56,972 nucleotides of DNA from Deltaproteobacteria bacterium (GCA_031401135.1 JANNRF010000394.1:1-56972), one strand, 5' to 3'. Shown: positions 30,514 to 46,868, numbered from the stretch's first letter. Numbers and translations: made by a program. Notes: generated by a model from the letters alone, not told the origin.

Positions 30514-31677
30514 TCACTTCCTCAAAAACCCCACCACCTCGCTCACCACTCGCTCGACCTGCGCAGCGCTCAGCTCGGGGAAGATCGGCAGCGCGAGGGT
30601 TTCCTGCGCGGCGGCCTCGGACTCAGGCAGATCCCCCACCTGATAACCGTGCTCGGCGAAGCACGGCTGCATGTGGAGCGGCTTCGGGTAGTAGATGCTG
30701 GTGCCGATGCCCTGCGCGCCTAAGTGCTCCTTCAGCGCATCGCGCTTCGCGGCGGGCACACGCACGACGTACTGGTTCCAGACGTGGCGCGCGGGCTTCG
30801 CGTGCTGCGCGGGGGTGCGCAGCGCGAGGCCACCTTCCGTGAGCGGGGTGCGCGAGTCCGCTGCGCCTTCGCTCGCGAACAGCGCGTCGTACTGGGAGGC
30901 GGCGCGGGCGCGACCATCGTTCCAGGTATCGAGGTGCGGCAGTTTCACGCGCAGCACGGCGGCCTGCAGCGTGTCGAGGCGCGAGTTCATCCCCACTTCG
31001 TCGTGGAAGTATTCCCGCGCGGCGCCGTGCGTGCGGAGCCTCCTCAAGTGCGCGGCTTGCTCGGCGTCGTCGCTGGTGAGGGCGCCGCCGTCTCCGTAAC
31101 AACCGAGGTTCTTGGAAGGGTAGAAGCTGAAGCAGGCGAGTCCGTCGCTCCCCGTTCTCTGGCCGCGCGCACCGACAGCGCCAATCGCCTGCGCCGCATC
31201 GTGAACGACGTGCGCGCGCTTTGCCCGAGCCGCGTCCTCGACGCTCGGGTCGCAGGCCTGCCCAAACAAGTGCACGGGGATCACGGCGTTTACTCGCTTT
31301 CCGGCCAGCGCCCGCTCCAATGTGTCCGCCGTCATGCAGAAAGTCGCTGGGTCGATGTCCGTGAACACGATGCGCGCGCCGAGGCGTGCGATCGCGCTGG
31401 CGGTGGCGAAAAACGTGTAGGTCGGACACGCCACGGCGTCGCCCCGCTTCACACCCAACGCCAATAGCGCGAGTAGCAACGCATCGGAACCCGAAGCGCA
31501 CGCGACGCCGTGCCGTGCCCCGCAATAATCGGCGAACTCGCGCTCGAACATGCCGACTTCGGGGCCGAGGATGAAGCGCTGCTCGGAGAGCACCTTGTTA
31601 ATGGCGGCGGCGAGCTCGTGCTCGAGCGCCTCGTACTGGAGCTTCAGGTCGAGCTGCGGAATTTGCGCTGGCTGCAT
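30514..31677 (-). CDS. DegT/DnrJ/EryC1/StrS family sugar aminotransferase
   Basis: FILGPEV, SGSDAL, TFFATA, DAAQA, SFYPSKNLG (PLP Lys) and NSRLDTLQAA. Confidence 0.95.
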   Translation of the reverse strand: MQPAQIPQLDLKLQYEALEHELAAAINKVLSEQRFILGPEVGMFEREFADYCGARHGVACASGSDALLLALLALGVKRGDAVACPTYTFFATASAIARLGARIVFTDIDPATFCMTADTLERALAGKRVNAVIPVHLFGQACDPSVEDAARAKRAHVVHDAAQAIGAVGARGQRTGSDGLACFSFYPSKNLGCYGDGGALTSDDAEQAAHLRRLRTHGAAREYFHDEVGMNSRLDTLQAAVLRVKLPHLDTWNDGRARAASQYDALFASEGAADSRTPLTEGGLALRTPAQHAKPARHVWNQYVVRVPAAKRDALKEHLGAQGIGTSIYYPKPLHMQPCFAEHGYQVGDLPESEAAAQETLALPIFPELSAAQVERVVSEVVGFLRK

Positions 31678-31704
31678 GGGTCTGCCCGTCCTCGTGGCCT
31701 TCGA

Positions 31705-33711
31705 CTACTGGACGTAACCGAGCGCGCGCAGCTGCTCTAGCGCTTCTTCGTCGAGTTCTGCACTGGGCCGGCCAGGGATCCGGAAAACTGTCCGCGCTGC
31801 CGCCGCCCGCTCTCGCCAAACACGCTCTGCATCGTCTGCCGCGACAATCGCCGCTCCGGTATCGAGGAGGGGATGCTGCTCCTTGGGATCGGCGCTGAGG
31901 TCGAAGACGGTGCGCTGGCCCGAGGCCACGTTGCGAATCACCTTCCAATGCTCGTACACGACCGAAACCTGCGCGTCGAAGTAGAGCATGCCGGTGCTCA
32001 CAGCGGCCGGGTTCTCGCCCGCAGTGCCAGGCGCTCGCCACAGGCGCACGAGCGACGGCGCGATCGCAGCGCCATCCGGTATCGGCAATCGCATCAGCTC
32101 CAGAATCGAGGCGGGGATTTGCTCGGTTGAGACTGGCGTCGGCACGACACCGCGCTCGCTCGCGCCGGGCAGCCGGATCGCGAGCGGCACGCGGATCGAC
32201 TCGTCGTACAGGGCATGCCCATGCTGCGTCGCGCCATGATCCCAGAACTCCTCGCCGTGGTCGCTCGAGAGCACGATCACGCAGCGCTGGTCGAGGCCCG
32301 CGTCGCGGACGGCGGCGAGAAGACGCCCAATACTCGCGTCCACCCAGCGCAGCTCCCCGTCATATAGAGCGCGGATCCAGCGGCGTTCATCGGCACTCGG
32401 GATGAACAAGCCCGTTCGCACATCGTCGCCGCGTTTCCATTCCGCGCCGATCCGCGCGGGCGCGGGCCCAGGGGGCTGGTACTCCGCCGGCGGGTGGTAG
32501 TTCATGTGGGGATCGAGGTAGTGGATCCAGAAGAAGAACGACTCGTCGCGCAGCGCTTCGATTTGCGAGATGGCTCGCTCGGTGAGCAAGTCGGTCCGTC
32601 CGTCGAGCTGGTGCAAGCCGATGCGCCGCGAGAGTTCGGCGCCGAGCGAATCGCCGATTCGTTCGTGCGGAAAAAAGTCGTAGCGCTGGAAGCCCTGTCC
32701 GAAGCCGAACTCGGCGCCGACGTTGGTGTTGTCGCCGAGCGCAGAAGTCGCGAAGCCGGCCGTGGCGAAGCGCTCCGCGAGCGTCTCGACCTCGGGCGGC
32801 AGGACCGCCTCGATCTGCTCAACGCCGTGCGCCGGAACCGAGAGCCCGGTGTGCATCGACGCGAACGCTGGCCGCGTCCACGGCGCAGCGGAGCGCGCCT
32901 GGCTGAAGACGATGCTCTCGCCGAGCAGCGCGTCCAAGTTCGGATGCTCCGCCGCCGCCGGGTCGTACGCGCGGAGGGCATCTGCGCGGAGCGTGTCGAT
33001 CGTCAATAAGATCGTGCAGTTCTTCGGCCCGCTGTCCGCGGGCATGCGGTCGAAGGCTCGCTCTTCCCGAGCGCCGAGGCCGAGGGCGGCCACCAGCGCA
33101 GCGGCGCTTACCGTTGGCACCAGCGAGCCGCGCCGAACGCGCGCGAAGCCAGCGCCAAAGATCACGCACGAGAGCGCCCAGCCGCCCGTCGCAGCTAGGC
33201 CGAGCGGCGAGCGCCAGGGGCCGATCGCATAAAGGTGGGCCCATGCGGTGAAGCCGGTTGCGAGCGCGATCCAGGGCGCCGCGTGAACGAGGCCTGCGCC
33301 AGCTTCAAAGCGGCCTCTCCGGAGCGCGAGCAGGTTCGACGCTCTCGCAGCAGCGATACCGCTCGCGAGTGCCGCGACGCTGACGCAGGCGGCCTCGATC
33401 GCGCCGCCCCCGATCCAGATCGGCACAAACGCGAATGCGACCACAGCTGCGACCGAAGCGCCGAATGCGCAGCCTTCCGCCGAGCCGCGGCGGCGCGCAA
33501 CAATCGCAGCGCCGAACGCGCAGATGGCGGCGGTGGCCGCGGTCGATAACCAGAACGTCCAGAGCAACCACGGCACACTCACTAGGCCCTGCGGGCGCTC
33601 CAGCAGGCCGACAGTGAAGTTGAGCGCGCCGCTCGTGATCGAGACGGACAGCCATACCCCGAATGGGGAGAATCGCGCCGGGCCCATTCCGTCTGCTTGC
33701 TTGAAGCCCAC
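31705..33711 (-). CDS. Membrane-anchored sulfatase-like (alkaline phosphatase superfamily) hydrolase/transferase
   Basis: N-terminal multi-TM region; IDTLRAD, WTRPAFASMHTG, HYLDPH, SDHGEEF.DHG...HG and LRALGY; AGGAG before the GTG. Confidence 0.88.
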   Translation of the reverse strand: MGFKQADGMGPARFSPFGVWLSVSITSGALNFTVGLLERPQGLVSVPWLLWTFWLSTAATAAICAFGAAIVARRRGSAEGCAFGASVAAVVAFAFVPIWIGGGAIEAACVSVAALASGIAAARASNLLALRRGRFEAGAGLVHAAPWIALATGFTAWAHLYAIGPWRSPLGLAATGGWALSCVIFGAGFARVRRGSLVPTVSAAALVAALGLGAREERAFDRMPADSGPKNCTILLTIDTLRADALRAYDPAAAEHPNLDALLGESIVFSQARSAAPWTRPAFASMHTGLSVPAHGVEQIEAVLPPEVETLAERFATAGFATSALGDNTNVGAEFGFGQGFQRYDFFPHERIGDSLGAELSRRIGLHQLDGRTDLLTERAISQIEALRDESFFFWIHYLDPHMNYHPPAEYQPPGPAPARIGAEWKRGDDVRTGLFIPSADERRWIRALYDGELRWVDASIGRLLAAVRDAGLDQRCVIVLSSDHGEEFWDHGATQHGHALYDESIRVPLAIRLPGASERGVVPTPVSTEQIPASILELMRLPIPDGAAIAPSLVRLWRAPGTAGENPAAVSTGMLYFDAQVSVVYEHWKVIRNVASGQRTVFDLSADPKEQHPLLDTGAAIVAADDAERVWRERAAAARTVFRIPGRPSAELDEEALEQLRALGYVQ

Positions 33712-33764
33712 GCAACATCTCCTTGTCGGTCGTCGATGGCGGCATGATTCGCGCGCGCGAGAGC

Positions 33765-35474
33765 TCAGTCCTTGCTGAGATTCGCGATTCGTCGATAGAC
33801 CCGGATCGGCGGATTCACGGTGGGATAGTCGAGGGCGGGCGCCCCCGCGAAGGCGAACGGATCGGGTGTTTGAAACAATGCGACGCGGCGATAACCGAGT
33901 CCGCCTTGCTCGAGTGCCTGATACGAGGCCGGGGGGAGCACGCCGCTGTGGGGAAGCCCAAGGCTGGTGTGGTCCGGAATCACGATCACGAAACGAGGCG
34001 TGGCATCCGCCAACTCACGGGCGATGCGATCCGCGGCTGCTTGGTCGATTCTCGGCAGGTCGTACATGCCGCGGAACTCACCGAATCGGCGGCTCTCGAC
34101 GCTCGCAGGAAGCGGCGGGAGGTTTTGGGAAGCGCCGAAGAATCCCACGCGATCGCCGGGCTGTAGGTGCGTCGCGAGCCACGCGCCAGCTTCGTATCTC
34201 GAATCTCGCAGCATCTCGAACGAGAGCGACGCCCCGCGCGCCAGCGCTAGCGCTAGCGCTAGCGCGACTGCCAGCGCTCCCACATGCGAGACCCAGCGTA
34301 AGCGGTGGCTCTCTGCCATCCAGAGAGCGCGCGCGCCGAACGGCGCCAGCAGCAGCGCCGTGACCAGCGTGTATCGGAGGTGCGGCCCGCGCGCGAGCAG
34401 GAACATGTACACGCCGTAGCCGAGTGCGGGCAATAACAAGTAGCGGTCGGCGCGCCAAGCGCGGCGCAGCGAAGAGGCCACGCCCACAAGGACCAAACCG
34501 AGCCCGAGCGGGTTCAGACAGTCGATCAGTAGTGAGAACTCGATGCGTGCAAGGGCGGCATGTCCGGCGAGCGTGTAGGGGAAGCCCGGCGTCGCGCCGA
34601 CACCGCCCTGCGCGTGAATGATCACGCGCTCCGAGAGTTCGCGGATGTGCGCGAAGTAGCGGCCCGGATCGAGGAACAAGCCGCTGCCGAGCCCGAATGT
34701 CACGAAGCCCACTGCAAGCCCGCAGCCCGCTGCGCGCCAGAATGCGCCCGCGCTGGGGAGCGCGCGTGCCGCCGGCGGACGCTGTGCATTCAGCAGCAGC
34801 CCGAGAGCCATCCCGAGCAGCAAGCCGAGCGCCGACTCTTTGGTGGCGAGCGCGCAGCCTGCCCAGAGCCCGAGCCAGGCAGCTCGCCGGGGAGTCGTCC
34901 CGTCGGCGATGCAGCGCGCGTAACAGGCCAGTGCCAGGCTCGCGAAGGCGAGCAGCGCGATGTCTACGTTGCCGGTTCGCGCATAATAAAACATCGGAAA
35001 CACGGTCATCGCGAGAAGGGCCGCGATCAGCGCCGATTTCGCGCCCCAGGCGCAGCGCGCGGCCTCGTGGAGGCCGAGCACGCACACCACGCCCAGCAGG
35101 ACCGAGAGGAAGTGCGAGATCCAAGTCAACACCCGCAGGCTGCGCGCGGGATCTGCAAGGCCGTACGGGTATTCGGGCTGCGGCGCGCGAAGATCGCCGC
35201 TGAGCCACAGCGCGCCCAGATACGGCGTGTAGCTCGCGCCGACAAGGAGCGGATGCAGCATCGCGTAGCCGACGTTCTGTCCTTCGCGCGGCGCCACAAG
35301 CGCGTGGAGCTGTGCAAGCGAGCCGAGCGGGGTCTCGTCGTCCACGCCCCAAGCATGGGTTCGATCCGCGCGGGTTGCGTGTGGTGCACCCCACCAGAAG
35401 GCGGGCGCGTAAAGCAAGAAGGCGAGGAGGGCGACGACTACGCGGCCGTTCGCCGGCCATGCAGTGGCGCTCAT
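33765..35474 (-). CDS. ArnT/PMT-like GT-C membrane glycosyltransferase
   Basis: DDE in the first periplasmic loop, YYARTGNVD, ALATK, about 12 TM segments. Confidence 0.82.
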   Translation of the reverse strand: MSATAWPANGRVVVALLAFLLYAPAFWWGAPHATRADRTHAWGVDDETPLGSLAQLHALVAPREGQNVGYAMLHPLLVGASYTPYLGALWLSGDLRAPQPEYPYGLADPARSLRVLTWISHFLSVLLGVVCVLGLHEAARCAWGAKSALIAALLAMTVFPMFYYARTGNVDIALLAFASLALACYARCIADGTTPRRAAWLGLWAGCALATKESALGLLLGMALGLLLNAQRPPAARALPSAGAFWRAAGCGLAVGFVTFGLGSGLFLDPGRYFAHIRELSERVIIHAQGGVGATPGFPYTLAGHAALARIEFSLLIDCLNPLGLGLVLVGVASSLRRAWRADRYLLLPALGYGVYMFLLARGPHLRYTLVTALLLAPFGARALWMAESHRLRWVSHVGALAVALALALALARGASLSFEMLRDSRYEAGAWLATHLQPGDRVGFFGASQNLPPLPASVESRRFGEFRGMYDLPRIDQAAADRIARELADATPRFVIVIPDHTSLGLPHSGVLPPASYQALEQGGLGYRRVALFQTPDPFAFAGAPALDYPTVNPPIRVYRRIANLSKD

Positions 35475-36091
35475 GGCGCTGGCGGGCGTCGCGTCGGTTT
35501 CGGAAGGGCCGCCCGCATCGCCTCGAACCAGCTGATTGCCGGCACACCGAGCATCCTCGCGCCCGGCGCGACGTTCGTGAAAACGGCGGAGCAGGCCCCC
35601 ACTACCGCGCCGTCGCCCAGCGTCACGCCCGCTTTCACAAAACAATTCGAGGCGACCCACACATCGTTCCCCAGCACCACAGGTTTCACGCGATGCGAGG
35701 CCGGGTCCGTGTAGGCCTGCGTTCGTGACATCGTGCTGTGCTCGCGCGAGAGGATCACCGTGTTCGCGCCGATCGAGCAGTTGTCGCCGATCGTGACGCC
35801 GCCGTACGCCTCGATCAGCACGTTGCGTGTTGTCGTGAAGCCGCTGCCGATCGAGAGGTTGTAGCTGTGCGAGAGCGTGCAGCCGGGCCCGATCCAACAG
35901 AATCCGGCCAGGCGCTTGGTGGTCGCCTTGAGAAACAGGTAGCGGAGAAAGACGCCCTCGAAGCCTGGCAGCCCCCTAATCAGCCACCACAGATACTCCT
36001 CTGCGAAGCGGATGATCAGCTGTTTTGGCCGGTACGAAGAGAGCAGATGCCGCGCGTTCGGCAGCATCCAATGGCCGCGCGCCTCGCTCAT
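35471..36091 (-). CDS. Hexapeptide-repeat (LbH) acyltransferase
   Basis: VTIGDNCSIGANTVI..REH and VVLGNDVWV...GVTLGDGAVVGA...GVPA. Confidence 0.9.
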   Translation of the reverse strand: MSEARGHWMLPNARHLLSSYRPKQLIIRFAEEYLWWLIRGLPGFEGVFLRYLFLKATTKRLAGFCWIGPGCTLSHSYNLSIGSGFTTTRNVLIEAYGGVTIGDNCSIGANTVILSREHSTMSRTQAYTDPASHRVKPVVLGNDVWVASNCFVKAGVTLGDGAVVGACSAVFTNVAPGARMLGVPAISWFEAMRAALPKPTRRPPAP

Positions 36092-36330
36092 GCGCCCTTC
36101 GCGACGAGGGTCTGCACGATCTGCGGGATCGACAGCATCGCCATGATCTCCTCGTCCGTGAAGCGCAGCCCGAATTCTTCCTCGAGCGCGAGCACGAGGT
36201 TCATGTGGCTGAGCGAGTCCCAGGCTTCGAGCGTGTCGGGCGACACCTCGTCGTTCAGCGCGGCTCGCTCGACGTCCATGATGTCCATCATGGCCTGCAC
36301 GACTCGCCCACGAACATCCGCGTCACTCAT
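36088..36330 (-). CDS. Acyl carrier protein
   Basis: WDSLSHMNLVLALEEEFG phosphopantetheine motif. Confidence 0.93.
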   Translation of the reverse strand: MSDADVRGRVVQAMMDIMDVERAALNDEVSPDTLEAWDSLSHMNLVLALEEEFGLRFTDEEIMAMLSIPQIVQTLVAKGA

Positions 36331-38107
36331 TGAGAGTCTCCACTGGGAACGGTCCCACGATCGCCTTGAACCAGTCGGGCCGCGAGCCTGAATCGGACAG
36401 CCGGCGCCGGTACACGACCTCGGCCGCTTCGCGTTTCACGACTTGGAAGCCGACACTGCTCCAGAACTCCGCGACCAGCCCGTTCTTTGCGCTGCGCAGA
36501 TAGTGGCCTTCGATCTCGCTGCAGTGACGCCGCGCGGCGAGAGCGACGCAGCTTTCGGCGAGCACTTGCTCGACCCCGCGGCCGAGAACACGGCAGGACA
36601 TCAGCAGCGTGTCGACGATCGCGAGCGGACCCTGGCAGCGAAGGATGGCCGCACCGACCAGCCCCGCGTCACCGAAGCGGTCGCTTACGCGGATCGTGAG
36701 CACGTCGGAGTCCGGGCTCTCGACGAATGTGCGGATGTCGTCTTCCGAGTAACGGCGCGTCGTCAGGTTGAACTGATTGGTGCGCTGCGTCAGCTGAGCG
36801 ACGCGGGCGATCTCGCCCGGCCCCGCGAGCGCCAGTTCGGCGACCATCTCGAGCGAGCGCAGGTAGGCCGTAAGGTCTGGAATTTCGTCGTGCGCCCGGC
36901 GGCGGTCCGCCTCGGCCCGATACATCGCACTGCGAGTGCGGTCTTCCTCGGAGATCGAGAGCGTGTCGAACCACCCGCCCGCCAAGAGCAGGTTGCGGTA
37001 CTCGACGGCGCGATCCGCGGGCAAGTGAACCGCCTCGACCATCGGCAGCGCGCTGCGCACGCGCTCGACCTCGAACTCGCTGTCGTCGAGGAAGACCAGG
37101 CTGTCGAGGCCGATGTTCAGCTCCGCCGCGATCTCGCGGAGGTTCTCTGCCTTGTCCCGCCAGTTGATGCGGCTCGCCGCGATGTCGCGTTCTTGCAACA
37201 GCATGCCGGGGTGATCGCGGAACACGCGCCAGACGGTCTCTGGCTCGTTCTTGCTGCACAGCGCGAGGATCACGCCACGCGCCGCGAGATTCTTCACTTC
37301 CTGCTGGAACTCGCGAAACGCCGAGCCGGGATGCTCCGTACCGAGCGCGAGGCCCGCGAACTCCTCCTCGCCGGCAATTCCGCCCCACAGCACGTTGTCG
37401 CAATCGAGCACGAGGCACTTCCGCGCGCGCCCGCGCGTTGCCACCCAATAACGAGTGACGGTGTCGGCGACTTCGCGCAGCGCATCGCGCGCATACGGCG
37501 CGCGCCCGATGTGCCAGTAGCGCGGGTCGTAGAAGCGTTCGACGCCGAGCCGCGCGAGCACCTGCGAGAGGTCGAGGAAGTAGGCGTTACCGAGAGCTGC
37601 GAGGGCCTCGCGCATACCGTCGTTGAGCGCGCGCACCACCGCTTGCTGCCCAAAGCCGGCGGCTTCGCCGTCGGCGATACCGAGGGCCGGCAGCGGGGGC
37701 GTTTCGAAGCCGACACAGAGCAGCGTCGCCTGCGTCTGCCGGCGCGCTCCGGCGAGCAGCACACGCAGCTCGCCGAGGGTGCGCTCGAGTTCTGACTGCA
37801 CGTCCGCGCGAGAGAGCGTTGGGAATTCGCGAGCGAGGCGGGGAGACGCCGTGTCGAAATGCAGCCAGACCAGCGCGAGGTCGCTGCGCGAGAGCACCTT
37901 TTCGCGGCCGTCCAGAGCCTCCTGGAACGCTCCGGCGAAACTCGAGAAGTGGACTTCGGCTCGGAAGCCGGCGCGCATCGCCGAGTAGCGGAGATAGGGC
38001 TCGATCGGTTCGAGTGTGGCGTTGCGCAGGACGCCCACGGACAGCAGCGGCAGCGACGCCAGCTCGGCGCTCCGCAATAACCGCTGGATCTCGGCGAAGG
38101 ACGGCAT
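36323..38107 (-). CDS. FkbH-like HAD-IIIC phosphatase / glyceryl-ACP synthase
   Basis: VLDCDNVLWGG, CSKN, INW.DK, FLDDS.FE, RTNQFN, DRFGDAG and MSCRVLGR. Confidence 0.93.
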   Translation of the reverse strand: MPSFAEIQRLLRSAELASLPLLSVGVLRNATLEPIEPYLRYSAMRAGFRAEVHFSSFAGAFQEALDGREKVLSRSDLALVWLHFDTASPRLAREFPTLSRADVQSELERTLGELRVLLAGARRQTQATLLCVGFETPPLPALGIADGEAAGFGQQAVVRALNDGMREALAALGNAYFLDLSQVLARLGVERFYDPRYWHIGRAPYARDALREVADTVTRYWVATRGRARKCLVLDCDNVLWGGIAGEEEFAGLALGTEHPGSAFREFQQEVKNLAARGVILALCSKNEPETVWRVFRDHPGMLLQERDIAASRINWRDKAENLREIAAELNIGLDSLVFLDDSEFEVERVRSALPMVEAVHLPADRAVEYRNLLLAGGWFDTLSISEEDRTRSAMYRAEADRRRAHDEIPDLTAYLRSLEMVAELALAGPGEIARVAQLTQRTNQFNLTTRRYSEDDIRTFVESPDSDVLTIRVSDRFGDAGLVGAAILRCQGPLAIVDTLLMSCRVLGRGVEQVLAESCVALAARRHCSEIEGHYLRSAKNGLVAEFWSSVGFQVVKREAAEVVYRRRLSDSGSRPDWFKAIVGPFPVETLNE

Positions 38108-38122
38108 GCTCGGCTCGGCTTC

Positions 38123-39016
38123 TCAGCGCACTATGAACGCGGCGACTTTGGGGACGATCTCGCCGGCTGCGCCGACGTAGGCTGGATTCTCCTGCAACTC
38201 CAGCACCTCGAAGCCTGCGTGCTCGAGCTGCGCGACGACGTCGTCGGGGCTCCAGTAGAGGAAGATGTGATCCGCCTCGGGCGCCGTGATGGCGGCCGCG
38301 ACGAACCCGACGCCGCCCGGCAGCAGCAAGCGGCGCAGCCGCTCGAGGAAGCGCTGCGGGTCGGAGAGATGCTCGAGCACCTCGATGGTCTGGACGCAAG
38401 CGCGCGGCTCGAGCTCGACGCTTGTTATGTCCGTGCTCGCCGACTCGAAACGGCTCGCACAATTCCAGGCGCGCACGTGCTCGAGCGTGAACTCGCGCGA
38501 GGACGGGCTGATGTCGAGCCCGCTGCCCGAAGAGCCCGGCGCCCCGTTCAGCAGCTGGACGGAGTAGAAGCCCGTGCCGGTTCCGACATCGTAGAAACGG
38601 CGATCCGCGAGCTTGGCCACGCGCGGCAGAAAGCGTTCGCGATAGAACGTGAGCTGGCGATAGTGGTGACGCCAGAGAAACTGCGAAACGAGAATCCCAG
38701 GCAGGTACAGCGTCTTCATGTACTCGGGGTTCAGGTAGACCCGCGCGCACGCCTCCTCGTAGCTCTGCTCTTCGTATCGCTTCGTGCGGTTGAAGCGGCG
38801 CTGCAGACGCATTGCATCGATGGAGAACCCGGAGTAACCGCGGATCGCACCCTCGAGCGCTCGTGGGTCGGTTCCGAGCAGCCGCGACAGATGCTCGTCG
38901 AAATCCGCGATCCACGCGGGTCCGAACTCAGCCTCGACATCCAAGAACGTCTTCTTGAAGATCGGTGCTCGCTCGAAGAACAGCTCGCGAAACGGCCCGT
39001 AGGCGCCGCGCTCCAT
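38123..39016 (-). CDS. Class I SAM-dependent methyltransferase
   Basis: YDVGTGTG, GLDIS, EVLEHL and LLPGG. Confidence 0.88.
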   Translation of the reverse strand: MERGAYGPFRELFFERAPIFKKTFLDVEAEFGPAWIADFDEHLSRLLGTDPRALEGAIRGYSGFSIDAMRLQRRFNRTKRYEEQSYEEACARVYLNPEYMKTLYLPGILVSQFLWRHHYRQLTFYRERFLPRVAKLADRRFYDVGTGTGFYSVQLLNGAPGSSGSGLDISPSSREFTLEHVRAWNCASRFESASTDITSVELEPRACVQTIEVLEHLSDPQRFLERLRRLLLPGGVGFVAAAITAPEADHIFLYWSPDDVVAQLEHAGFEVLELQENPAYVGAAGEIVPKVAAFIVR

Positions 39017-39025
39017 CTCGACCTC

Positions 39026-39463
39026 TTATTTTGGGTAAACGCAGGTCGCTTTGCCGCTGACGCAGCGTGCGCCAGCGCGGTTGTCGACCGTCATGTCGAG
39101 CTGAACGCTGCGCAATGGAGCGAGCACGCGCTTTACCTCGACGCCGAACTCGACCGTCTCGCCCACATACACCGGCGCGTGGAACTGAAAGCTCACGGAG
39201 CCAATCACCGCGCGCGCTCCCGGCAACTCGGTTCCCAGAATCTTGGAGAAGAACGAGGAGACCAGGAGGCCGTGCACGATGCGCCCGCTGTATCCCCACT
39301 GATCTGGCAGACCACCATCGACGTGAACTCCGGTGAAGTCGCCCGTGAGCGCGCTGAAGGCATCGACGCGATCCGTCGTGAGCTCGACGGACTCCCCGTA
39401 GCAGTCGCCCACATGGATTTCGTCCAGAGCCTTTCCCGGCACGCCGCTCCCCTCGACTTTCAC
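39026..39463 (-). CDS. MaoC-family (hotdog) dehydratase
   Basis: FSALTGD...HVD, IVHG, LPG and F.APVYVG. Confidence 0.88.
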   Translation of the reverse strand: MKVEGSGVPGKALDEIHVGDCYGESVELTTDRVDAFSALTGDFTGVHVDGGLPDQWGYSGRIVHGLLVSSFFSKILGTELPGARAVIGSVSFQFHAPVYVGETVEFGVEVKRVLAPLRSVQLDMTVDNRAGARCVSGKATCVYPK

Positions 39464-39475
39464 TCGCGCTCCCCG

Positions 39476-40441
39476 TTACTCGCTCGGGGCTGCCGCCTCA
39501 GCGATCTGCTGCTGCAGATTCCCGCGGAGATACACAAAAAATCCGCAGACCCATATCGGCACGCACCCTAGGCGCCATAAGACGAGCAATAGGGCTGCCC
39601 CTTGCAGTCCGCTCCAGCGGAAGAGCTGCTCGAACGCTGCTTCTCCGACGCCGAGGCCTGCTGGCGTGATGGGCAGCGCGTTCGCAAAGAAGCCGAGTGC
39701 TGCGAGCGCAGCGGCCAAGACATGCTGCGTCGAGCCGAGCAATTCGGCGGCGGCGTGGGAGAACGCAGCGAGCACGCTGGCTTGACCGAGCGCGGCGATC
39801 GCGAACATCCCGAGCAGCAGACGGCGGTGACGCCGAAAGTGGGAGAGGGCGGTCAAGATCCGCACGAGCCAACCGACACGCAGCACGCGCAGCGCCGCCA
39901 ATCTCTCGGCGGAGAACACCAGGAGAAGCCCGCCCACGACGAGACCCACGCCCATCGCTGCGCCAATTGCCAGCGCGCTCCCGGCGCTGCCAGTGAATGC
40001 GGCGCGCGGCAGACAGGCCGCTAGCCCGCTGACGAGCACGAACAGTGCGGTCATCGCGACGGCGCGATCGAGCAGGACTAGCGTGCCGATCTCGACCAGC
40101 TGCTTGCGGTGATCGCGGCCCAAGTAATAAAGCTTGATGACATCGCCACCCGTCCCACCTGGCACCGCCACACTGAAGAAGGCACTCACGAGTACGATGC
40201 GGATCGCCCGTTCGAACGACAGCGCAATGCCTTCCACGCGCACCACGAGACGCAGCCGCGCGGCTTCGACGAGTACGCCGAAGGGCCCGAGCGCGGCGAA
40301 CACGCAGAGTGGAAGCCAGGCATCCGCGAGCATCTTCGGAGAGAACGGGACGCGCGAGAGCACCCAGGCGGCGATGCCGACACCGATCGCCGTGCGACCG
40401 AACGCACCCCAGCGAGCGCGTCGTCGATTGTCCTCTGCCAT
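39476..40441 (-). CDS. Lysylphosphatidylglycerol synthase TM-domain (flippase-like) protein
   Basis: PGGTGGDVIK, LDR and LPITPAGLGVGE; multi-TM. Confidence 0.87.
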   Translation of the reverse strand: MAEDNRRRARWGAFGRTAIGVGIAAWVLSRVPFSPKMLADAWLPLCVFAALGPFGVLVEAARLRLVVRVEGIALSFERAIRIVLVSAFFSVAVPGGTGGDVIKLYYLGRDHRKQLVEIGTLVLLDRAVAMTALFVLVSGLAACLPRAAFTGSAGSALAIGAAMGVGLVVGGLLLVFSAERLAALRVLRVGWLVRILTALSHFRRHRRLLLGMFAIAALGQASVLAAFSHAAAELLGSTQHVLAAALAALGFFANALPITPAGLGVGEAAFEQLFRWSGLQGAALLLVLWRLGCVPIWVCGFFVYLRGNLQQQIAEAAAPSE

Positions 40442-40501
40442 CGCGGCGCGCAGGGTATCGGCACGCTCGGCGGCGGGCCACGCGCGCGTCCGGCGAAGTT
40501 C

Positions 40502-41572
40502 GTGAGCGGGGCGCAAACCGCGCTGCGCGTCAGCGCGCTCACTGCCAGCGATGCGCAGCGTTGGGGCGAATACATCGCTGGCCACGCGGACGCGACGCTT
40601 TACCACACGCTCGCGTGGCGCGATTTCGTGGCCGATGTGTTCGGGCACCACGCGGTCTACCTAATTGCTGAGCGCGAGGGCCGCGTGTGCGGCGTGTTGG
40701 CTGGCTTCGTCGTCCGGCTGCCCGTACTCGGTGCCAAGCTGATCTCGCTGCCCTACGACATTGGCTCCGGAGGCGCGCTGGCCGACGACGACGAGACCGA
40801 GCGCGCGTTAGTCGTGGCGGTCTGCGAGGCCGGCCGGGCGGAGCGCGTGAAGTACGTCGAGTTGCGTTACGCGGATGCGCGTCCTGCGCTCGCCCAGTTA
40901 GGCCTGCTCGAGAGTCGCCCTGTCTATTTGTCGGACATCGCGATCGGGAGCCGCGGGACAACTTGGGCGCGCATCAAGAAGGACCAGAAGGGCTCGATGC
41001 GCACAGCACGCCAGCGCGGCGTCAGCGTTCGCGAGGCGCGCGGGAGCGAGGACTACGCTGCGTTCTACGGCGTCTACCTGACGGCCTTCCGCGATTTCGG
41101 AACTCCTCCTTACGGCCCCAACTACTTCCCTGAACTGTTTCAGCGCTTCCACGCGAGCCACGCGGTTCGCTTGCTGGTGGCCGAGGCCGAGGGGCGCGTG
41201 GTCGGCGGCCTCCTGCTCTTCTGCTTCGGGGGGGCATGGGTTAACAAGTTCACGGCTTGCCTCCCCGAGGCGGCGCCGCTGCGCGCGCCCGCCGCCCTCT
41301 ACGGCGCTGCGCTCGAGTTGGCGATCGAGACCGGCATAAGGCGTTTCTCGATGGGGAGTTCGGCTCCCCACCAGAAAGGGCTGATCGAGTTCAAGGAGCG
41401 CTGGGGCGCGACGAGCCGGCCTGCCGTCGCCTACAGCGCGGCGGTGAAGGGCGCGCCGCCCGACCTCGCGCGCTACTTCAACGAATCGGGTCTGGCGCAG
41501 CGGGCCTGGCGCCAGCTGCCGTTATTCGCGACACGCACGTTAGGTGGGCCGCTGAACCGCTGGTTCTGTTAG
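40502..41572 (+). CDS. FemAB-like GNAT protein (polysaccharide-associated)
   Basis: ATLYH..AW, LISLPY..SGG, YVELR, RDFGTP and FKERWGA; GTG start approximate. Confidence 0.85.
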   Translation: MSGAQTALRVSALTASDAQRWGEYIAGHADATLYHTLAWRDFVADVFGHHAVYLIAEREGRVCGVLAGFVVRLPVLGAKLISLPYDIGSGGALADDDETERALVVAVCEAGRAERVKYVELRYADARPALAQLGLLESRPVYLSDIAIGSRGTTWARIKKDQKGSMRTARQRGVSVREARGSEDYAAFYGVYLTAFRDFGTPPYGPNYFPELFQRFHASHAVRLLVAEAEGRVVGGLLLFCFGGAWVNKFTACLPEAAPLRAPAALYGAALELAIETGIRRFSMGSSAPHQKGLIEFKERWGATSRPAVAYSAAVKGAPPDLARYFNESGLAQRAWRQLPLFATRTLGGPLNRWFC

Positions 41573-41758
41573 TTCGAAAACGTGATGCGCCGCCGCGAAA
41601 TCGCCGTCGCGCGAACTCGGCGCGAGGCAGCCATTCATCGCGCGCCCATTGGTTGCCGCGGCTGCGCGCCTAAAGTCTATTGGGGACCCGCGCTGCCTGA
41701 CCGATGGGAGTCGAGGTCGAACTGGGTCGTCTGCGCGCGCGACCGCCGGGGAGCATGG

Positions 41759-43927
41759 ATGAAGGCCGTTGTGCAGGACATGAAATCGGGAGGCCTCTCG
41801 GTGGGCGAGGTTCCGCCCCCGGCGCTGCGCTCGGACGGCGTGCTCGTGCGCGTTCGGCGCTCGCTCATCAGTCTCGGGACGGATCGCGCCGTGATCGCGC
41901 TCGCCAAGAAGACGCCGCTCGGCAAGGCGCAGGATCGCCCCGATCTGGCGCGCAAGGTGATCAACAAGGCGATGCAGGAGGGCTGGTGGTCGACTTATCA
42001 GGTCGTGCGCAACCTCCTCGCTTCGCCGATCCCGCTCGGGTACTCATGCGCGGGCGAGGTGGTGGCGGTCGGCGCGAAGGCCAGCGAGTTCAAGGTCGGC
42101 GATCTGGTGGCATGCGCGGGACTGAACTTCGCGAATCACGCCGAGATCGATTACATCCCGCGCAATCTCGCGGTGAAGATGCCGGCCGGTTTGTCGTTCG
42201 AGTCCGCGAGCTTCGTTGCGCTCGGCGCAATCGCGATGCAGGGCACGCGCCTCGCCGAAGTGAATCTCGGCGAGCGCGTCGTCGTGTTAGGGCTCGGGCT
42301 GGTAGGCCAGATCTGCGCGCAGCTCGTGCGCTGCGCGGGCGCCACCGTGATCGCGATGGATCCAGATGTCGGCAAACACGAGCTCGCGCGCCAGCTTGGT
42401 ACGCATCACGTCGTTGCCAGCCACGAAGCGTTGATGCAGACCGTCCGCGAGCTCACCGATGGTGTGGGCGCGGATTCGATCTTGGTGTGCGCGGCCAGCA
42501 AGTCGAGCGCGATTCTGCGCGACGCCGCGGAGGCCGCCCGTCTCAAAGGCCGGGTCGTGGTCGTGGGCGACGTGGGCATGGAACTCGAGCGCCGCCCCTT
42601 TTTCGAGAAGGAGATCGAGCTCGTCGTCTCGCGCTCCTACGGGCCAGGCCGTTACGACCCGAGTTACGAGGAGCGCGGCATCGACTACCCGCCGGCCTAC
42701 GTGCGCTGGACAGAGCGCCGTAACATGCTCTCGTTCCTGGAGCTGGTCGCGCGCGGCGACGTGGCGGTCGAGCCGCTGATTACGCACTCCTTCCCGATCG
42801 AGCAGGCTGCCGCCGCATACGACATCGTGACCGGGAAGAGCAAGGTGCCGGCGATCGCGATCGCGCTCACTTACGAAGGGCCGCTCGAGAAGCCCAGCCA
42901 AGTCGTGCTGAAGGCGCCCGCCGCGGCGAGTCGCGCCAACGAACGCGTGCGGCTGGGCGTGATTGGCGCCGGGCAGTTCGCGCAGGGTGTTTTGCTGCCC
43001 GCCTTCAAGCGCCAAGGCGTTGCGTTTCAGTCATTTTGCACGGCCTCCGGCTTCACCAGCCGGAGCGTCGCCGAGCGTTACGACGCAACCTCTTGTACGA
43101 GCGACCCGCGCGAGGTGATTCACGATCCTGCGGTCGACGCGGTGGTGATCGCCACCCGCCACGACCAGCACGCGCCACTCGTGCTCGAGGCCCTGCGCGC
43201 CGGTAAGGCGGTGTTCACAGAAAAGCCGCTCTGCATCAAACCGGAGGAACTCGCGGAGCTTTGCGCCTTTGCCGCAGAGCACGGCCCGCCGCGCCTCGCC
43301 GTCGGCTTCAATCGCCGGTTTTCTCCGCTCGCTCGTGACGCGCGCGAGTTCTTCGCGAACCGCGCGGAGCCGCTCTCGATCGCCTACCGGGTGAACGCGG
43401 GCACCTTCCCGCCGGAGAGCTGGGTGTTCGACCCGCAGGTGGGCGGGGGCCGCTTGATCGGCGAAGCCTGTCACTTCGTCGACATGATCTGCTTCCTCGC
43501 TGGCTCGCTGCCGAATCGCATCTTCGCCGAGCGCATCGCGTCGCCCGGTGAAGGCGCGCCGAACCGCGACAGCGTCCTCATGAGTTTGCGGCTCGCAGAC
43601 GGATCGGTGGGCACGCTGCACTACCTCGCGAACGGAGACCCCTCGTTGGCCAAGGAGTACGTCGAGGTCTTCGGCGCACAGCGGGCCGCGCTGCTCGACA
43701 ACTACCGCTCGCTCTCGTTGTTCTCAGGGAATCGAAAACGAAAGCGCCGTCTGTTGAACCAGCAAAAAGGCTTCGCGGAGGAGACCGCCGCGTTCGTTTC
43801 CGCGGTACGCAGCGGCGGCCCCATGCCCATCCCCTTCGAGCAGTTGGTCGCCGTCACGCAGGCGGCCTTCCTTGCTCTCGAGAGCCTCTCGACGGGCGTG
43901 CCGGTCGAGTACCGGGATCCCCTCTAG
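41759..43927 (+). CDS. Bi-domain oxidoreductase (MDR-type dehydrogenase + Gfo/Idh/MocA)
   Basis: PLGYSCAG, GLGLVG and SRSYGPGRYD in the first domain; GAGQF, TRHDQH, EKP, GFNRRF and GEACHFVD in the second. Confidence 0.92.
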   Translation: MKAVVQDMKSGGLSVGEVPPPALRSDGVLVRVRRSLISLGTDRAVIALAKKTPLGKAQDRPDLARKVINKAMQEGWWSTYQVVRNLLASPIPLGYSCAGEVVAVGAKASEFKVGDLVACAGLNFANHAEIDYIPRNLAVKMPAGLSFESASFVALGAIAMQGTRLAEVNLGERVVVLGLGLVGQICAQLVRCAGATVIAMDPDVGKHELARQLGTHHVVASHEALMQTVRELTDGVGADSILVCAASKSSAILRDAAEAARLKGRVVVVGDVGMELERRPFFEKEIELVVSRSYGPGRYDPSYEERGIDYPPAYVRWTERRNMLSFLELVARGDVAVEPLITHSFPIEQAAAAYDIVTGKSKVPAIAIALTYEGPLEKPSQVVLKAPAAASRANERVRLGVIGAGQFAQGVLLPAFKRQGVAFQSFCTASGFTSRSVAERYDATSCTSDPREVIHDPAVDAVVIATRHDQHAPLVLEALRAGKAVFTEKPLCIKPEELAELCAFAAEHGPPRLAVGFNRRFSPLARDAREFFANRAEPLSIAYRVNAGTFPPESWVFDPQVGGGRLIGEACHFVDMICFLAGSLPNRIFAERIASPGEGAPNRDSVLMSLRLADGSVGTLHYLANGDPSLAKEYVEVFGAQRAALLDNYRSLSLFSGNRKRKRRLLNQQKGFAEETAAFVSAVRSGGPMPIPFEQLVAVTQAAFLALESLSTGVPVEYRDPL

Positions 43928-43929
43928 CC

Positions 43930-45849
43930 GTGTGCGGGATCGCCGGGTACGTGGGGATTCGCGACGAGACGCTGCTCGCGGAGATGGCGACCGCGCTCGC
44001 GCACCGCGGCCCGGATGACGCGGGCTACCTGCGCGACGGAGACGTCGGCCTCGCGCACCGCCGGCTCTCGATCATCGACCTGGCGGGCGGCCATCAACCG
44101 CTCTTCAACGAGGACGAGAGCGTCGCGGTGATCGCGAACGCCGAGATATACAACTACCGCGAGCTCGCGGTGGAGCTGCGCGCACGCGGCCATCGCCTGC
44201 GCACCAACAGCGATTGCGAGATGATCGTCCACCTCTACGAAGAGCTGGGCCCGCGCTGTGTCGAGCGGCTGATCGGCATGTTCGCGTTCGCGCTCTGGGA
44301 CAAGCGTGCGCGCAAGCTGCTGATCGCGCGTGATCGGCTGGGGGTGAAGCCGCTTTATTATGCCGCGTTGCCCGGCGCGTTCCTGTTCGCGTCCGAGGCG
44401 AAGGCGCTGCTGCGCTATCGCGGGCTCGACGCGACGGTCGACCCGCATGGGATCGTCGACTACCTCGCGCTGCGCTACTCGCCAGGCCCAGGCGGGATGT
44501 TCCGCGATGTCCAGAAGCTGCCGGCTGGCTGCATCGCCGAGATCGACGCGCGCGGCGAGGCGAAGGTCACGCGTTATTGGGAGCCGCCGCTGGTAGCCGG
44601 GCCGCACCGCGGCAGCGAAGACGACTGGCTCGAGGGCTTCGCCGAGCGCTTCGAGCGCTCGATCCAGCGCCGCCTGATCGCGGACGTTCCGCTCGGCGCA
44701 TATCTCTCAGGCGGCGTCGATTCGAGCGTGATCGTGGCAGCGATGGCGAAGGGCGGGGCCGCGCCGGTGCGCACGTTCACGGTCGGCTTCGGCTTCGAGC
44801 ACGACGAACTCTCGCAGGCCGCGTTCACGGCCAAGGAATTAGGCTGCGCTCACACGGAGATCGAGTCACGAGCCGCAGACGTCGCGCTGCTCCCCGAGAT
44901 CGTCTGGCATCTCGATGAGCCGATCGGCGACGCCATCGTGGTGCCGATGTACCAGCTTGCGCGCGAGGCCAAGAAGCAGGTCAGCGTGATCCTCTCCGGG
45001 GAAGGAGCTGACGAGACGCTCGGCGGTTACCTGTTCCAGAAGGCGCTGCTCTATGGCGATCGCCTGGCGCGCGTCGTGCCGGAACCGCTGCGCCGCGGCG
45101 CACTCATGCCGTTGTTACGCGCGACGCCCGCTGCGGCGATCAACCTCGCGTTCAGCTACCCGGCCGCGCTCGGCGAGCGCGGTAAGCAGCGCGCCGTCGA
45201 TTTCCTCGCGCTGCTCGGATCGGATCATCTACCCGCCGCATATCGGCACCTCATCTCGCTGTTCGACGCGCGCGACATGTCCAGTTTGCTGACGGCCGAG
45301 TTCCGCGCGCGCCTCGCGGAGACGCCGGCGCCGCTCCGCGCTGCGCCGCGCGGTGGCCCCGAGGTTCCGTTCTTGAACCGCGCGATCGATCTGCAGTTCG
45401 AGCATTGGCTGCCCGACGACATCTTGACCAAACAAGACAAAGTCTCGATGGCGCACGCGCTCGAGGTGCGGGTGCCGTTTCTCGATCACGAGCTCGTCGA
45501 GTACGCGCTCTCGATCCCGCCCAGCCTGAAGATCCGCCGCTTCGCGTCCAAGTGGCTGTTGCGGCGCTACGCGGAGCGGCTGTTGCCCAAGCGCGTGACC
45601 TCGCGCCGCAAGATGCCGTTCTACGTACCCGTCGAGAAGTACCTCGAAGAGCCGAGTTTCCGCGAGTTGGTGGGCGACACGCTCACGGAGCGGGCGCTGC
45701 GTGAACGCGGCATCTTCCGACCCGAAGCCGTGGAAAAACTGCGCGCCTCGGTCGCGAGCGGCGAGTTTCTCTACTCGAAGCAGCTCCTCAGCATCGTGAT
45801 TCTCGAGCTGTGGTTCCGCGCGATGGTTGATCGAAGAGGTGTGCGATGA
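43930..45849 (+). CDS. asnB: Asparagine synthase-like glutamine amidotransferase
   Basis: MCGIAG, HRGPD, HRRLSIID, LSGGVDSS, SGEGADE and EVRVPFLD; probably amidates a glycan in this context. Confidence 0.93.
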   Translation: MCGIAGYVGIRDETLLAEMATALAHRGPDDAGYLRDGDVGLAHRRLSIIDLAGGHQPLFNEDESVAVIANAEIYNYRELAVELRARGHRLRTNSDCEMIVHLYEELGPRCVERLIGMFAFALWDKRARKLLIARDRLGVKPLYYAALPGAFLFASEAKALLRYRGLDATVDPHGIVDYLALRYSPGPGGMFRDVQKLPAGCIAEIDARGEAKVTRYWEPPLVAGPHRGSEDDWLEGFAERFERSIQRRLIADVPLGAYLSGGVDSSVIVAAMAKGGAAPVRTFTVGFGFEHDELSQAAFTAKELGCAHTEIESRAADVALLPEIVWHLDEPIGDAIVVPMYQLAREAKKQVSVILSGEGADETLGGYLFQKALLYGDRLARVVPEPLRRGALMPLLRATPAAAINLAFSYPAALGERGKQRAVDFLALLGSDHLPAAYRHLISLFDARDMSSLLTAEFRARLAETPAPLRAAPRGGPEVPFLNRAIDLQFEHWLPDDILTKQDKVSMAHALEVRVPFLDHELVEYALSIPPSLKIRRFASKWLLRRYAERLLPKRVTSRRKMPFYVPVEKYLEEPSFRELVGDTLTERALRERGIFRPEAVEKLRASVASGEFLYSKQLLSIVILELWFRAMVDRRGVR

Positions 45850-46868
45850 GCGAACAGATCGAAGTCAGCGTGGTCACGCCGTTCTTCAACGAGCGGGGCG
45901 TCGTGGAGCACGCGATTCGCGCGTTCGCCGCGTCTCTCGCGACGCTCGGCAAGCGCTGGGAGTTGTTGGTGGTGAACGACGGCTCGACCGACGGCTCCGC
46001 GGAGATCGCGGCTCGCGTGATTGCCGAGCTGGGGCCGAACGCGCGTCTGCTCGGTTATCCGCGCAATCGCGGACGCGGCTTCGCGCTGCGCACGGGCATC
46101 GCCGCCGCGCGCGGCGACATAATCGTTACGACGGAGATCGATCTCTCCTGGGGCGAGCACATCGCGCACGCCCTGGTGGCGGCGATGGACGCCGATCCCA
46201 AGGCTGACATCGTGGTTGCGAGCCCGCATCTGCCGGGCGGTGGTTACAAGAACGTGCCGTGGGACCGCGTCTTCTACTCGACCTGGGGCAACCGCGTGAT
46301 CCGCACCGGTGTCTCGAACGCCGTCACGATGAATACCGGCATGACGCGCGCGTACCGGCGCGCAGCCATCCAGTCGCTGCCGCTCTTCGAGGACGAGAAG
46401 GAGTTCCATCTCGAGGTGATTCTGAAGTCGACCAGCTTCGGCTTCCGCATCACGGAAATCCCCGCGATTCTCGAGTGGAAGGACTACAAGCACGCGGACA
46501 CACGTGTGGTTCGCAAGAGTTCATCGAAAGTAAACCGGTTGATCGTCACGCACGGCTTGTTCAGCCTGTTCGCGAACCCGGTTCATTACGTGCTCCCGGC
46601 CAGCATGGTCGTGCTCGCGTTGGGCTTCGCCTGTCTGGGCGCGGCAGCCGTTGCGAAGCTGGTCGGGGCGGTGTCCGCATATCTGGCGATTTTCGGCGTC
46701 GGCTGGCTCACGCTCGGCATCATCCTGTTCGTGCTGGCGGTTGTCGCGCGCCAAGGCAACATGGTCCAGCACGAACTGTGGAGTCTGCAGCGAATCTTGT
46801 TAGGAATGGACCCGGCGCACCGGCCGCGCCTCGACGCAGCGCGGGAAGAGAGCCGAGCGACGGAATGA
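45846..46868 (+). CDS. GT2 glycosyltransferase (polyprenol-phosphate sugar synthase-like)
   Basis: SVVTPFFNE, VNDGSTD, NRGRG, EID and two C-terminal TM helices. Confidence 0.9.
   Translation: MSEQIEVSVVTPFFNERGVVEHAIRAFAASLATLGKRWELLVVNDGSTDGSAEIAARVIAELGPNARLLGYPRNRGRGFALRTGIAAARGDIIVTTEIDLSWGEHIAHALVAAMDADPKADIVVASPHLPGGGYKNVPWDRVFYSTWGNRVIRTGVSNAVTMNTGMTRAYRRAAIQSLPLFEDEKEFHLEVILKSTSFGFRITEIPAILEWKDYKHADTRVVRKSSSKVNRLIVTHGLFSLFANPVHYVLPASMVVLALGFACLGAAAVAKLVGAVSAYLAIFGVGWLTLGIILFVLAVVARQGNMVQHELWSLQRILLGMDPAHRPRLDAAREESRATE

Follow-up and report, generated by a model that had tools for sequence, protein, structure and literature searches.

A free-standing FkbH-acyl carrier protein module in a bacterial surface-glycan locus and its possible 2-methoxyacryloyl product

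Introduction

Loading of glycerate onto an acyl carrier protein (ACP) by FkbH is established for the protein family (work cited in PMC4552970). Among polyketide synthases (PKSs), OocJ starts with the domains dehydratase (DH)-methyltransferase (MT)-FkbH-ACP (PMC4552970), and the phormidolide PKS has an identical domain set from which, as said at second hand in PMC6174933, a 2-methoxyacrylyl starter arises; the isolation of an oocydin congener that retains the uncleaved methoxyacrylyl group is also reported there. The present analysis concerns a 56,972-nt stretch of Deltaproteobacteria bacterium (GCA_031401135.1, JANNRF010000394.1:1-56972; the whole stretch is hereafter 'the window'), where positions 33765-40441 encode the same four functions as separate proteins inside a surface-glycan locus.

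Lactyl starter modules of the order DH-ketoreductase (KR)-FkbH-ACP serve FR901464, lankacidin and bryostatin, and the methoxymalonyl-ACP cassette consists of FkbG/H/I/J/K. On the glycan side, the Arn pathway, which adds L-Ara4N to lipid A, arranges a GT2, a deacylase, a flippase and a GT-C enzyme around a polyprenyl carrier.

The nearest glycan precedent is Campylobacter jejuni, in which strain NCTC 11168 carries a 5-(2,3-di-O-methylglyceroyl) pseudaminic acid on flagellin that needs Cj1295 (PMC3068675); cj1302 is an fkbH-domain gene (PMC7099621), and Cj1300 is a putative S-adenosylmethionine (SAM)-domain methyltransferase (PMC2764114; PMC8405632). In Porphyromonas gingivalis and Tannerella forsythia, the set WbpA/B/E/D, WbpS, VimE and VimA has been named, and a deacetylase, a TIGR03019-like transferase and a TIGR03108-like amidotransferase are tied to tailoring of a diamino-uronate (PMC7468200).

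Results

The module and its proteins

Seven densely packed genes, all open, occupy 33765-40441 on the minus strand, encoding in order a flippase-like protein, a MaoC dehydratase, an MT, FkbH, an ACP, a hexapeptide (LbH) acyltransferase and a GT-C glycosyltransferase, with intergenic gaps of 12, 9, 15, -8, -4 and -4 bases (Table 1); a sulfatase-like gene and a DegT gene follow on the same strand. All genes named in the original prediction, which had been made from the sequence of the window, were thus found present, open and packed as claimed. Matches to ketosynthase, Wzx/Wzy and ABC families, whose absence had also been noted, were not found among the 30 window proteins scanned.

Table 1. Coordinates, strands and family evidence of the genes of the locus (L016 and L017, two of the closest loci).
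Feature	Position	Strand	Evidence
DegT-family aminotransferase, WbpE (C3) type	30514..31677	-	WbpE 3nyu, E 8e-71
Membrane-anchored sulfatase-like protein	31705..33687	-	PF00884
GT-C-type membrane glycosyltransferase (PMT_2)	33765..35474	-	PF13231, E 2e-10
Hexapeptide (LbH) acyltransferase, WcaF/LacA-like, candidate ACP-to-sugar transferase	35471..36091	-	
Dedicated ACP, WDSL motif	36088..36330	-	PF00550
Long-form FkbH glyceryl-ACP loader	36323..38107	-	TIGR01686, 286 bits (cut-off 147)
Class I SAM methyltransferase (MT), 135-residue helical N-terminal part	38123..39016	-	Pfam
MaoC-type hot-dog dehydratase, stand-alone, no fused ketoreductase	39026..39463	-	PF01575
UPF0104/flippase-like membrane protein, start inferred	39476..40441	-	PF03706, E 5e-27
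FemAB-like GNAT, VimA-like, candidate amino-acid/acyl transferase, start inferred	40502..41572	+	TIGR03019, 154 bits (cut-off 260)
Bi-domain oxidoreductase (MDR + Gfo/Idh/MocA), candidate sugar C3 dehydrogenase	41759..43927	+	63% identical in L016, L017
AsnB-type amidotransferase, WbpS-like	43930..45849	+	TIGR03108, 523 bits (cut-off 817); TIGR01536 over cut-off
GT2 polyprenyl-phosphate glycosyltransferase (ArnC/PgfS/AglJ-like)	45846..46868	+	all models below cut-off
Polysaccharide deacetylase (CE4)	46865..47707	+	PF01522; TIGR03006 best, below cut-off
552-residue protein without Pfam match, predicted (alpha/alpha)6 toroid + beta domain	47704..49362	+	model pLDDT 69

The roles of the HAD DxD motif and of the C-terminal SCR cysteine are known for FkbH loaders. 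Both motifs are present in the FkbH of the window (as DCD and SCR), SCR being kept in 72 of 72 aligned sequences; the protein is encoded in a single copy in the genome, and its gene overlaps that of the ACP by 8 bases. W37-D38-S39 of the ACP is invariant in 48 aligned ACPs, and a phosphopantetheinyl transferase is encoded elsewhere in the genome. The MaoC protein has an intact D-x4-H dyad (GDFTGVH), which is kept in all 71 aligned rows (these rows having been picked by a MaoC profile), and its nearest solved structure is the (R)-enoyl-CoA hydratase 1iq6 (E 8e-15). For the MT (structure model pLDDT 96), a fold search returned generic class I matches and no specific structural relative (best Z 18.6), and a predicted complex with S-adenosylhomocysteine and the ACP scored 0.78, against 0.77 for the control. 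The LbH gene directly follows the ACP gene in eight genome and nine metagenome loci of the MT family, thus the LbH protein is the first candidate for acyl transfer. Neither acyl-CoA nor 3-hydroxyacyl-CoA dehydrogenase homologues were found beside FkbH among the locus proteins, which rules out a methoxymalonyl-ACP cassette.

A portable cassette marked by the methyltransferase

The MT defines a tight family that marks the cassette; at E<=1e-30 this family comprises 503 clusters (50% identity). The best 80 of 98 confirmed genome matches were surveyed for partners within 10 kb, 51 of the 80 loci having full flanks; the partner profiles were built from those same 80 loci and kin inflate the counts, and the 80 genomes span many phyla. 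FkbH and ACP were each found near 75 of the 80 MTs and a MaoC domain near 68, either stand-alone (38) or as a fusion of MaoC with a short-chain dehydrogenase/reductase (SDR; 30), with a separate SDR in four more loci. All three partners were present together in 66 of the 80 loci, and in 46 of the 51 with full flanks. This linkage exceeds chance: as a rough background, a sample of 251 genomes from the window's phylum contained 19 with FkbH over cut-off anywhere.

The order MaoC-MT-FkbH-ACP was identical in 10 of the 80 loci, gene order being otherwise highly variable. One of six acyltransferase types lay near the MT in 77 of the 80, though some LbH matches may be unrelated sugar acetyltransferases, and the adjoining acyltransferase differed by locus (two or three GNAT types, AAC(3)-like, MBOAT or LbH), as did the sugar context (nonulosonate, Fuc3N/Qui3N-type or uronate). 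MaoC-MT-FkbH-ACP is thus a portable cassette. The reverse linkage is weak: among five FkbH loci in close relatives, one has MT and MaoC, and three are of an FkbH-ACP-MBOAT type that lacks the MT.

Loci of this latter type would also suit an MT that methylates the sugar while the ACP carries a plain glyceryl or pyruvoyl group; sugar O-methyltransferases are frequent in glycan loci, and no structural relative pins the MT's substrate. Yet in loci for unrelated sugar pathways the MT still keeps company with ACP and FkbH, something a sugar-specific enzyme would not do, and we regard this alternative as improbable.

In a quick tree of the MT (L074, L083 and L091 left out), the window falls in a nine-row clade with members from Acidobacteriota, Gemmatimonadota, Nitrospirota and others, and the loci with a MaoC-SDR fusion lie mostly in one clade apart from it. 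An MT orthologue was not found in eight genus relatives of the window genome. Together with the mixed-phylum clade, this suggests that the cassette moved horizontally.

Several further arrangements were seen in the family. Cultured carriers of the form without a reductase include Oleispirillum naphthae (L049) and Microcoleus (L041). About 28 loci (L052-L089; for example, L073:10000-20457), in Duganella, Sphingomonas, Modestobacter and other hosts, many of them cultured, carry a larger cassette, MT-GNAT-ACP-SDR-MBL-KASIII-MaoC/SDR-FkbH-ACP-AMP-binding, beside FdtA and DegT, and this cassette likely makes two acyl donors. Distant members of the MT family, with no FkbH, stand beside LuxC, LuxE, an AMP-binding enzyme and an ACP (L191:9677-14691, G011), and one (P0233) is fused to LuxC; such company fits MT action on carrier-bound acyl groups, the LuxC/LuxE-type set being a second acyl-supply kit in glycan loci. 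On plasmid pTM1 of the cultured strain Tistrella mobilis (L192:6617-12552), FkbH, a distant MT, an ACP and an MBOAT occur, with no MaoC annotated there.

An exchanged kit at the chromosomal slot

The DegT gene has counterparts of 76-83% identity in seven of the eight genus relatives. It does follow the sulfatase-like gene, as had been predicted, but it belongs to the resident genes of the genus, borders the slot and lies outside the imported block. In six of the eight relatives, a WbpD/WlbB-type acetyltransferase gene directly precedes DegT (3mqg, known as WlbB, E 1e-60). The fullest example, on one contig of G005 (L185:1862-18832), comprises wbpE, wbpD, a VimE-like gene, GNAT, GT2, AsnB, flippase, a Gfo dehydrogenase, a UDP-GlcNAc 2-epimerase, a deacetylase-carbamoyltransferase fusion, the toroid gene and GT-C, with no FkbH; G007 and G008 hold parts of such a cassette. 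Relative to the window, the GT2-type, AsnB, flippase, deacetylase, toroid and GT-C genes of these three genomes are paralogues of 33-43% identity (34-35% for GT-C at the matching slot of genus relatives).

With the relatives' sequences as queries, WbpD, the VimE-like protein and the resident GNAT were not found in the window genome, where the best match to WbpD is the LbH protein of the module (E 5e-6). The window thus keeps a wbpE-type DegT without wbpD, and the ACP kit occupies the slot. The slot constitutes a natural experiment, in which a shared backbone is combined with an acetyl/carbamoyl kit in the relatives and with the ACP kit here. An earlier view, of an island inserted in an empty site, was revised, as most relatives hold a paralogous cassette at the slot.

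Two features of the relatives stand apart from this exchange. A NodU-type carbamoyltransferase is fused to the deacetylase in their cassettes (L185, L183, L187, L184, L182 and L189); these Wbp/Vim-like cassettes would make a carbamoylated diamino-uronate and seem undescribed. G001 has a second, apparently frameshifted DegT copy by an empty slot (L179:6515-7625, contig C2), and its intact copy lies with a glycan locus on C60.

Linkage of the two arms

The five plus-strand genes listed in the original prediction (FemAB-like, bi-domain oxidoreductase, AsnB, GT2 and deacetylase) were all found, followed by a sixth, the toroid gene, that the list lacked. About 60 bases (40441-40502) separate the starts of the divergent arms. 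A 13,010-base contig of another study bridges 31085-44093 with 164 differences (runs X5 and X6), and this independent contig rules out the junction as a misassembly.

Eight backbone genes (flippase, GT-C, FemAB-like, deacetylase, bi-domain, toroid, AsnB and GT2) were counted around related modules. At least four lay within 10 kb in five of the eight closest genome loci (L014-L017 and L022), mostly at 35-64% identity, and likewise in the metagenome locus L095. The two arms therefore belong together, and conservation of the module with the glycosyltransferase genes, named in the original prediction as a test, was found. L019, L020 and L074 hold mainly MaoC-MT-FkbH-ACP-LbH; the genome of L019 has flippase, FemAB-like, deacetylase and GT2 genes elsewhere.

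The junction sits where the closest loci carry an aminotransferase of their own, in line with the flippase and FemAB-like genes, and an inversion with gene loss at this point is likely. A promoter scan returned 0 sites, 15 terminators were predicted (10.9 +/- 3.4 by chance), and no boundary repeats beyond chance-like matches were found. After DegT, a small gene and a DUF6036 nucleotidyltransferase gene (29784-30474) form a toxin-antitoxin-like pair that, among the relatives' regions fetched, is common to G003 only. L022, L198 and L199 are titled uncultured Halobacteria archaeon, a label that is doubtful; in sequence their genes reach 45-62% identity with bacterial counterparts, and a bacterial sugar transferase (PF02397) is among them.

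The acyl group

From the observed genes, motifs, linkage and slot exchange, we infer every chemical step of the following route. With 1,3-bisphosphoglycerate as donor, FkbH would likely charge the dedicated ACP with glycerate; the MT would first 2-O-methylate the glyceryl-ACP, blocking collapse to pyruvoyl, and MaoC would then remove the 3-hydroxyl as water, yielding 2-methoxyacryloyl-ACP. LbH would move this group to a surface amino sugar, replacing the acetyl that WbpD supplies in the relatives.

The four functions and their order match the loading modules of OocJ and phormidolide, as do the lack of a KR and a 1,3-bisphosphoglycerate-derived unit (PMC4552970, PMC6174933); here they are four separate genes, with no ketosynthase, and LbH and glycan genes follow. 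The module thus works like a DH-MT-FkbH-ACP loading module but is not one. The lactyl starter modules have FkbH, dehydratase and ACP in common with it, whereas it lacks a KR and has an MT. No KR was found in the locus, and the best match in the genome, which is 95% complete, reaches 190 bits, against 321-427 for dedicated ones, thus a lactyl product is unlikely. The domain set of OocJ and phormidolide, the matching order and the missing KR together favour 2-methoxyacryloyl-ACP.

That an ACP-borne, glycerate-derived acyl group serves the surface glycan is held with good confidence, which upholds the PKS-free glyceryl-ACP module of the original prediction. Of the acyl groups proposed there, lactyl is weakened, and the O-methylglyceryl and enol-type ones stay candidates. 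By analogy with the PKS modules, transfer of 2-methoxyacryloyl to a surface amino sugar is tentatively put forward as the leading candidate, ahead of O-methylglyceryl and then a reduced form, though it falls somewhat short of being probable.

O-methylglyceryl, which we consider rather unlikely, would follow if the module makes mono- or di-O-methylglyceryl-ACP, as for C. jejuni flagellin, with MaoC editing, epimerising or releasing it. Beyond the methylated glyceroyl of that flagellin, cj1302 is a pseudogene in strain 12664 and cj1301 is absent in strain 12661, both strains lacking the glycan (PMC7099621); the link between these gene losses and the glycan is drawn here and not by the authors. 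An Atlas cluster named Cj1300, mostly of Campylobacterota, matches the MT model over residues 38-297 (TM 0.80/0.90), a structural likeness only, and DUF4910 occurs in eight of ten AAC(3)-type loci, recalling Cj1295 and Cj1296/7. On the other hand, the hydratase dyad of MaoC is fully kept, the window locus has no DUF4910 or AAC(3) gene and the genome no AAC(3) profile match, and Cj1301 is described as an epimerase. A named Campylobacter homologue of the MT was found neither among the 120 matches listed of 1829 nor among 10 representatives.

A reduced product would arise if the unsaturated intermediate were reduced in trans, by the medium-chain dehydrogenase/reductase (MDR) half of the bi-domain enzyme or by FabG, to 2-methoxypropionyl (O-methyl-lactyl) or lactyl. 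A 2-methoxypropionyl group occurs on a mycobacterial glycolipid sugar. The SDRs so common in the family (30 fusions and four separate) imply that a reduced product is common there, and the MDR half is weakly like acryloyl-CoA reductase (E 1e-9) and CurK (E 1e-13). However, in 34 of the 80 loci MaoC stands alone and the surrounding 10 kb contain no SDR (in L024 a fusion may have been missed), and most of these 34 have no bi-domain enzyme either; bi-domain enzymes also exist without the module (a second copy on contig C31), and the fused loci keep mostly to their separate clade. Reduction at this locus is hence held to be quite unlikely. Two further parallels were dropped: the Mycobacterium kansasii glycolipid, as passages of PMC4403928 name N-acylkansosamine but neither its acyl group nor FkbH or MaoC, and swinholide, as no FkbH occurs in the swinholide paper.

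Independently of the group made, the acyl could be swapped in by another route: the deacetylase would free an amine, the FemAB-like GNAT would install the ACP-borne group, and LbH would only acetylate, an arrangement that any of the products fits. LbH resembles acetyl-CoA enzymes, an acetylating LbH would also account for the loss of wbpD, and acyl-exchange partners recur elsewhere (deacetylases in 7 of 11 GNATb-type loci, DUF4910 in the AAC(3)-type loci above). Nevertheless, the block MaoC-MT-FkbH-ACP-LbH occurs with no FemAB within 10 kb in L019, L020, L074 and L094, profile comparison did not connect the FemAB-like family with the GNAT types that other loci carry, and VimA, a characterised FemAB look-alike, selects amino acids (PMC7468200). 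We consider such a swap unlikely, and LbH remains the preferred transferase.

Several observations weigh against 2-methoxyacryloyl transfer by LbH in place of WbpD. On the chemistry, MaoC is absent near 12 of the 80 MTs (near 5 of the 51 in fully flanked loci), the close relative L017 being one such case; the authors of OocJ judged its DH and MT to be without conserved motifs and doubted their activity (PMC4552970); the di-O-methylglyceroyl of C. jejuni involves no dehydration in the product; and a search for PKS-fused MTs among proteins of 563-2000 residues returned only the one LuxC fusion. On the transfer, LbH is most like acetyl-CoA-dependent O-acetyltransferases (LacA, E 2e-14; Maa), thus the FemAB-like protein stays a rival and both N- and O-acylation are possible; by this likeness LbH may acylate oxygen or merely acetylate, and the FemAB-like protein, whose genes occur in all five close-clade genomes searched, could be the true recipient of the ACP-borne group. 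On the exchange, the window genome is 95% complete; in G006, and for the apparently frameshifted copy of G001, DegT likewise lacks wbpD and borders an empty slot; the closest loci have a distinct aminotransferase of their own that the window genome lacks (best 98 bits versus 656-680); and the resident DegT may be an orphan in the window genome.

Sugar backbone and delivery

A Wbp-type 2,3-diamino-hexuronate is the most likely sugar. The bi-domain enzyme would oxidise its C3, which the resident WbpE-type DegT would aminate; AsnB would amidate the sugar, presumably converting uronate to uronamide; the deacetylase and the FemAB-like protein would as a pair deacetylate and re-acylate it with an amino acid; and the toroid protein would possibly epimerise it. 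For delivery, GT2 would then link the sugar to polyprenyl phosphate, the flippase-like protein would carry it over the membrane, and its transfer to an outer acceptor would fall to GT-C. This lipid-carrier route had been predicted and is plausible from the family types. Nucleotide-sugar dehydrogenases lie elsewhere in the genome, and as context for the acceptors predicted, lipid A or surface proteins, the genome encodes LpxK, but also two exosortases, eight PMT_2 matches and Wzx-type genes.

The nearest solved relatives of DegT include the C3 transaminases DesV, QdtB and WbpE, with 7b0d, DesV 2oga, 4qgr and QdtB matching above WbpE; the WbpD-like gene upstream of it in the relatives speaks for the WbpE type. 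The toroid gene is found in both cassette types (37-61% identity); its model matches dermatan sulfate epimerase 6hzn (Z 22.2, rmsd 4.3, 446 aligned) and cellobiose 2-epimerase at an equal Z of 22.2, and Ulvan_lyase_N occurs in 14-47% of members of its Atlas look-alikes, hence the modelled protein is a candidate uronate C5 epimerase or lyase. The flippase-like protein scores 42.3 bits with TIGR00374, slightly below the cut-off of 43.2.

The locus has putative counterparts of the C3 aminotransferase, amidotransferase, deacetylase and FemAB-like protein of the Wbp/Vim set (PMC7468200), and the genus relatives' cassette has WbpD-like and VimE-like genes besides. The window differs in that it lacks WbpD, has the ACP module in the slot and adds GT2, flippase, GT-C and toroid genes; TIGR03019, TIGR03006 and TIGR03108 are the best matches of its VimA-like, deacetylase and WbpS-like genes, all scoring below cut-off. 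With Arn, to which the locus had been likened, the gene layout agrees but the families do not: ArnB reaches 180 bits (cut-off 631) and ArnC 61 (529), the flippase is of the UPF0104 type and ArnA is missing. The GT-C, predicted to be ArnT-like, is of PMT_2 type with no specific tie to ArnT, as no match was obtained against the Protein Data Bank (PDB; sequence and profile) or the ArnT model. By these family scores, a Wbp/Vim-like diamino-uronate backbone appears to fit better than Arn.

The membrane-anchored sulfatase-like protein seems loosely tied to the cassette: it has only 31-38% matches in the genus relatives and adjoins the module in L014, L019 and L074. The genome encodes at least four such paralogues, this one included. 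In it W-T-x-P replaces C-x-P-x-R, with threonine at the nucleophile position, and by this motif it may transfer a phosphate or sulfate ester instead of hydrolysing one.

Discussion

C. jejuni resembles the present case in having an fkbH-domain gene and a SAM methyltransferase in a glycan locus, there tied to a methylated glycerate-derived N-acyl group (PMC3068675, PMC7099621, PMC2764114). It differs in placing a nonulosonate on flagellin, in using Cj1295 and an N-acetyltransferase rather than LbH, and in having no GT2/flippase/GT-C set; in the passages of these three papers an FkbH route is neither proposed nor tested. A cassette of FkbH, MaoC, methyltransferase and ACP acting on a glycan was not found in full-text literature searches, whose coverage leaves out most subscription journals and bioRxiv supplements, nor was a characterised pathway with this gene set. 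The original prediction that the product is probably undescribed is compatible with this, and tempered by the C. jejuni precedent.

The chemistry is already known from polyketides; here it would appear in a free-standing and widely traded form, and its product on a surface sugar is possibly new. The 2-methoxyacryloyl group is an enol ether, a masked pyruvoyl; the literature searched yielded no description of it on any glycan. Taken as a whole, the proposal of a free-standing methoxyacrylate starter module, present in many phyla, that caps surface sugars with 2-methoxyacryloyl as a plug-in displacing WbpD acetylation is doubtful, less secure than the product assignment by itself. The four soluble proteins of the module are small and suited to mass spectrometry without culture of the host. 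If the proposal is right, a substrate would be assigned to a large, unstudied MT family (503 clusters), glycans would gain a new acid-labile substituent that routine hydrolysis would destroy, and a route would be offered to the unexplained dimethylglyceroyl of C. jejuni flagellin.

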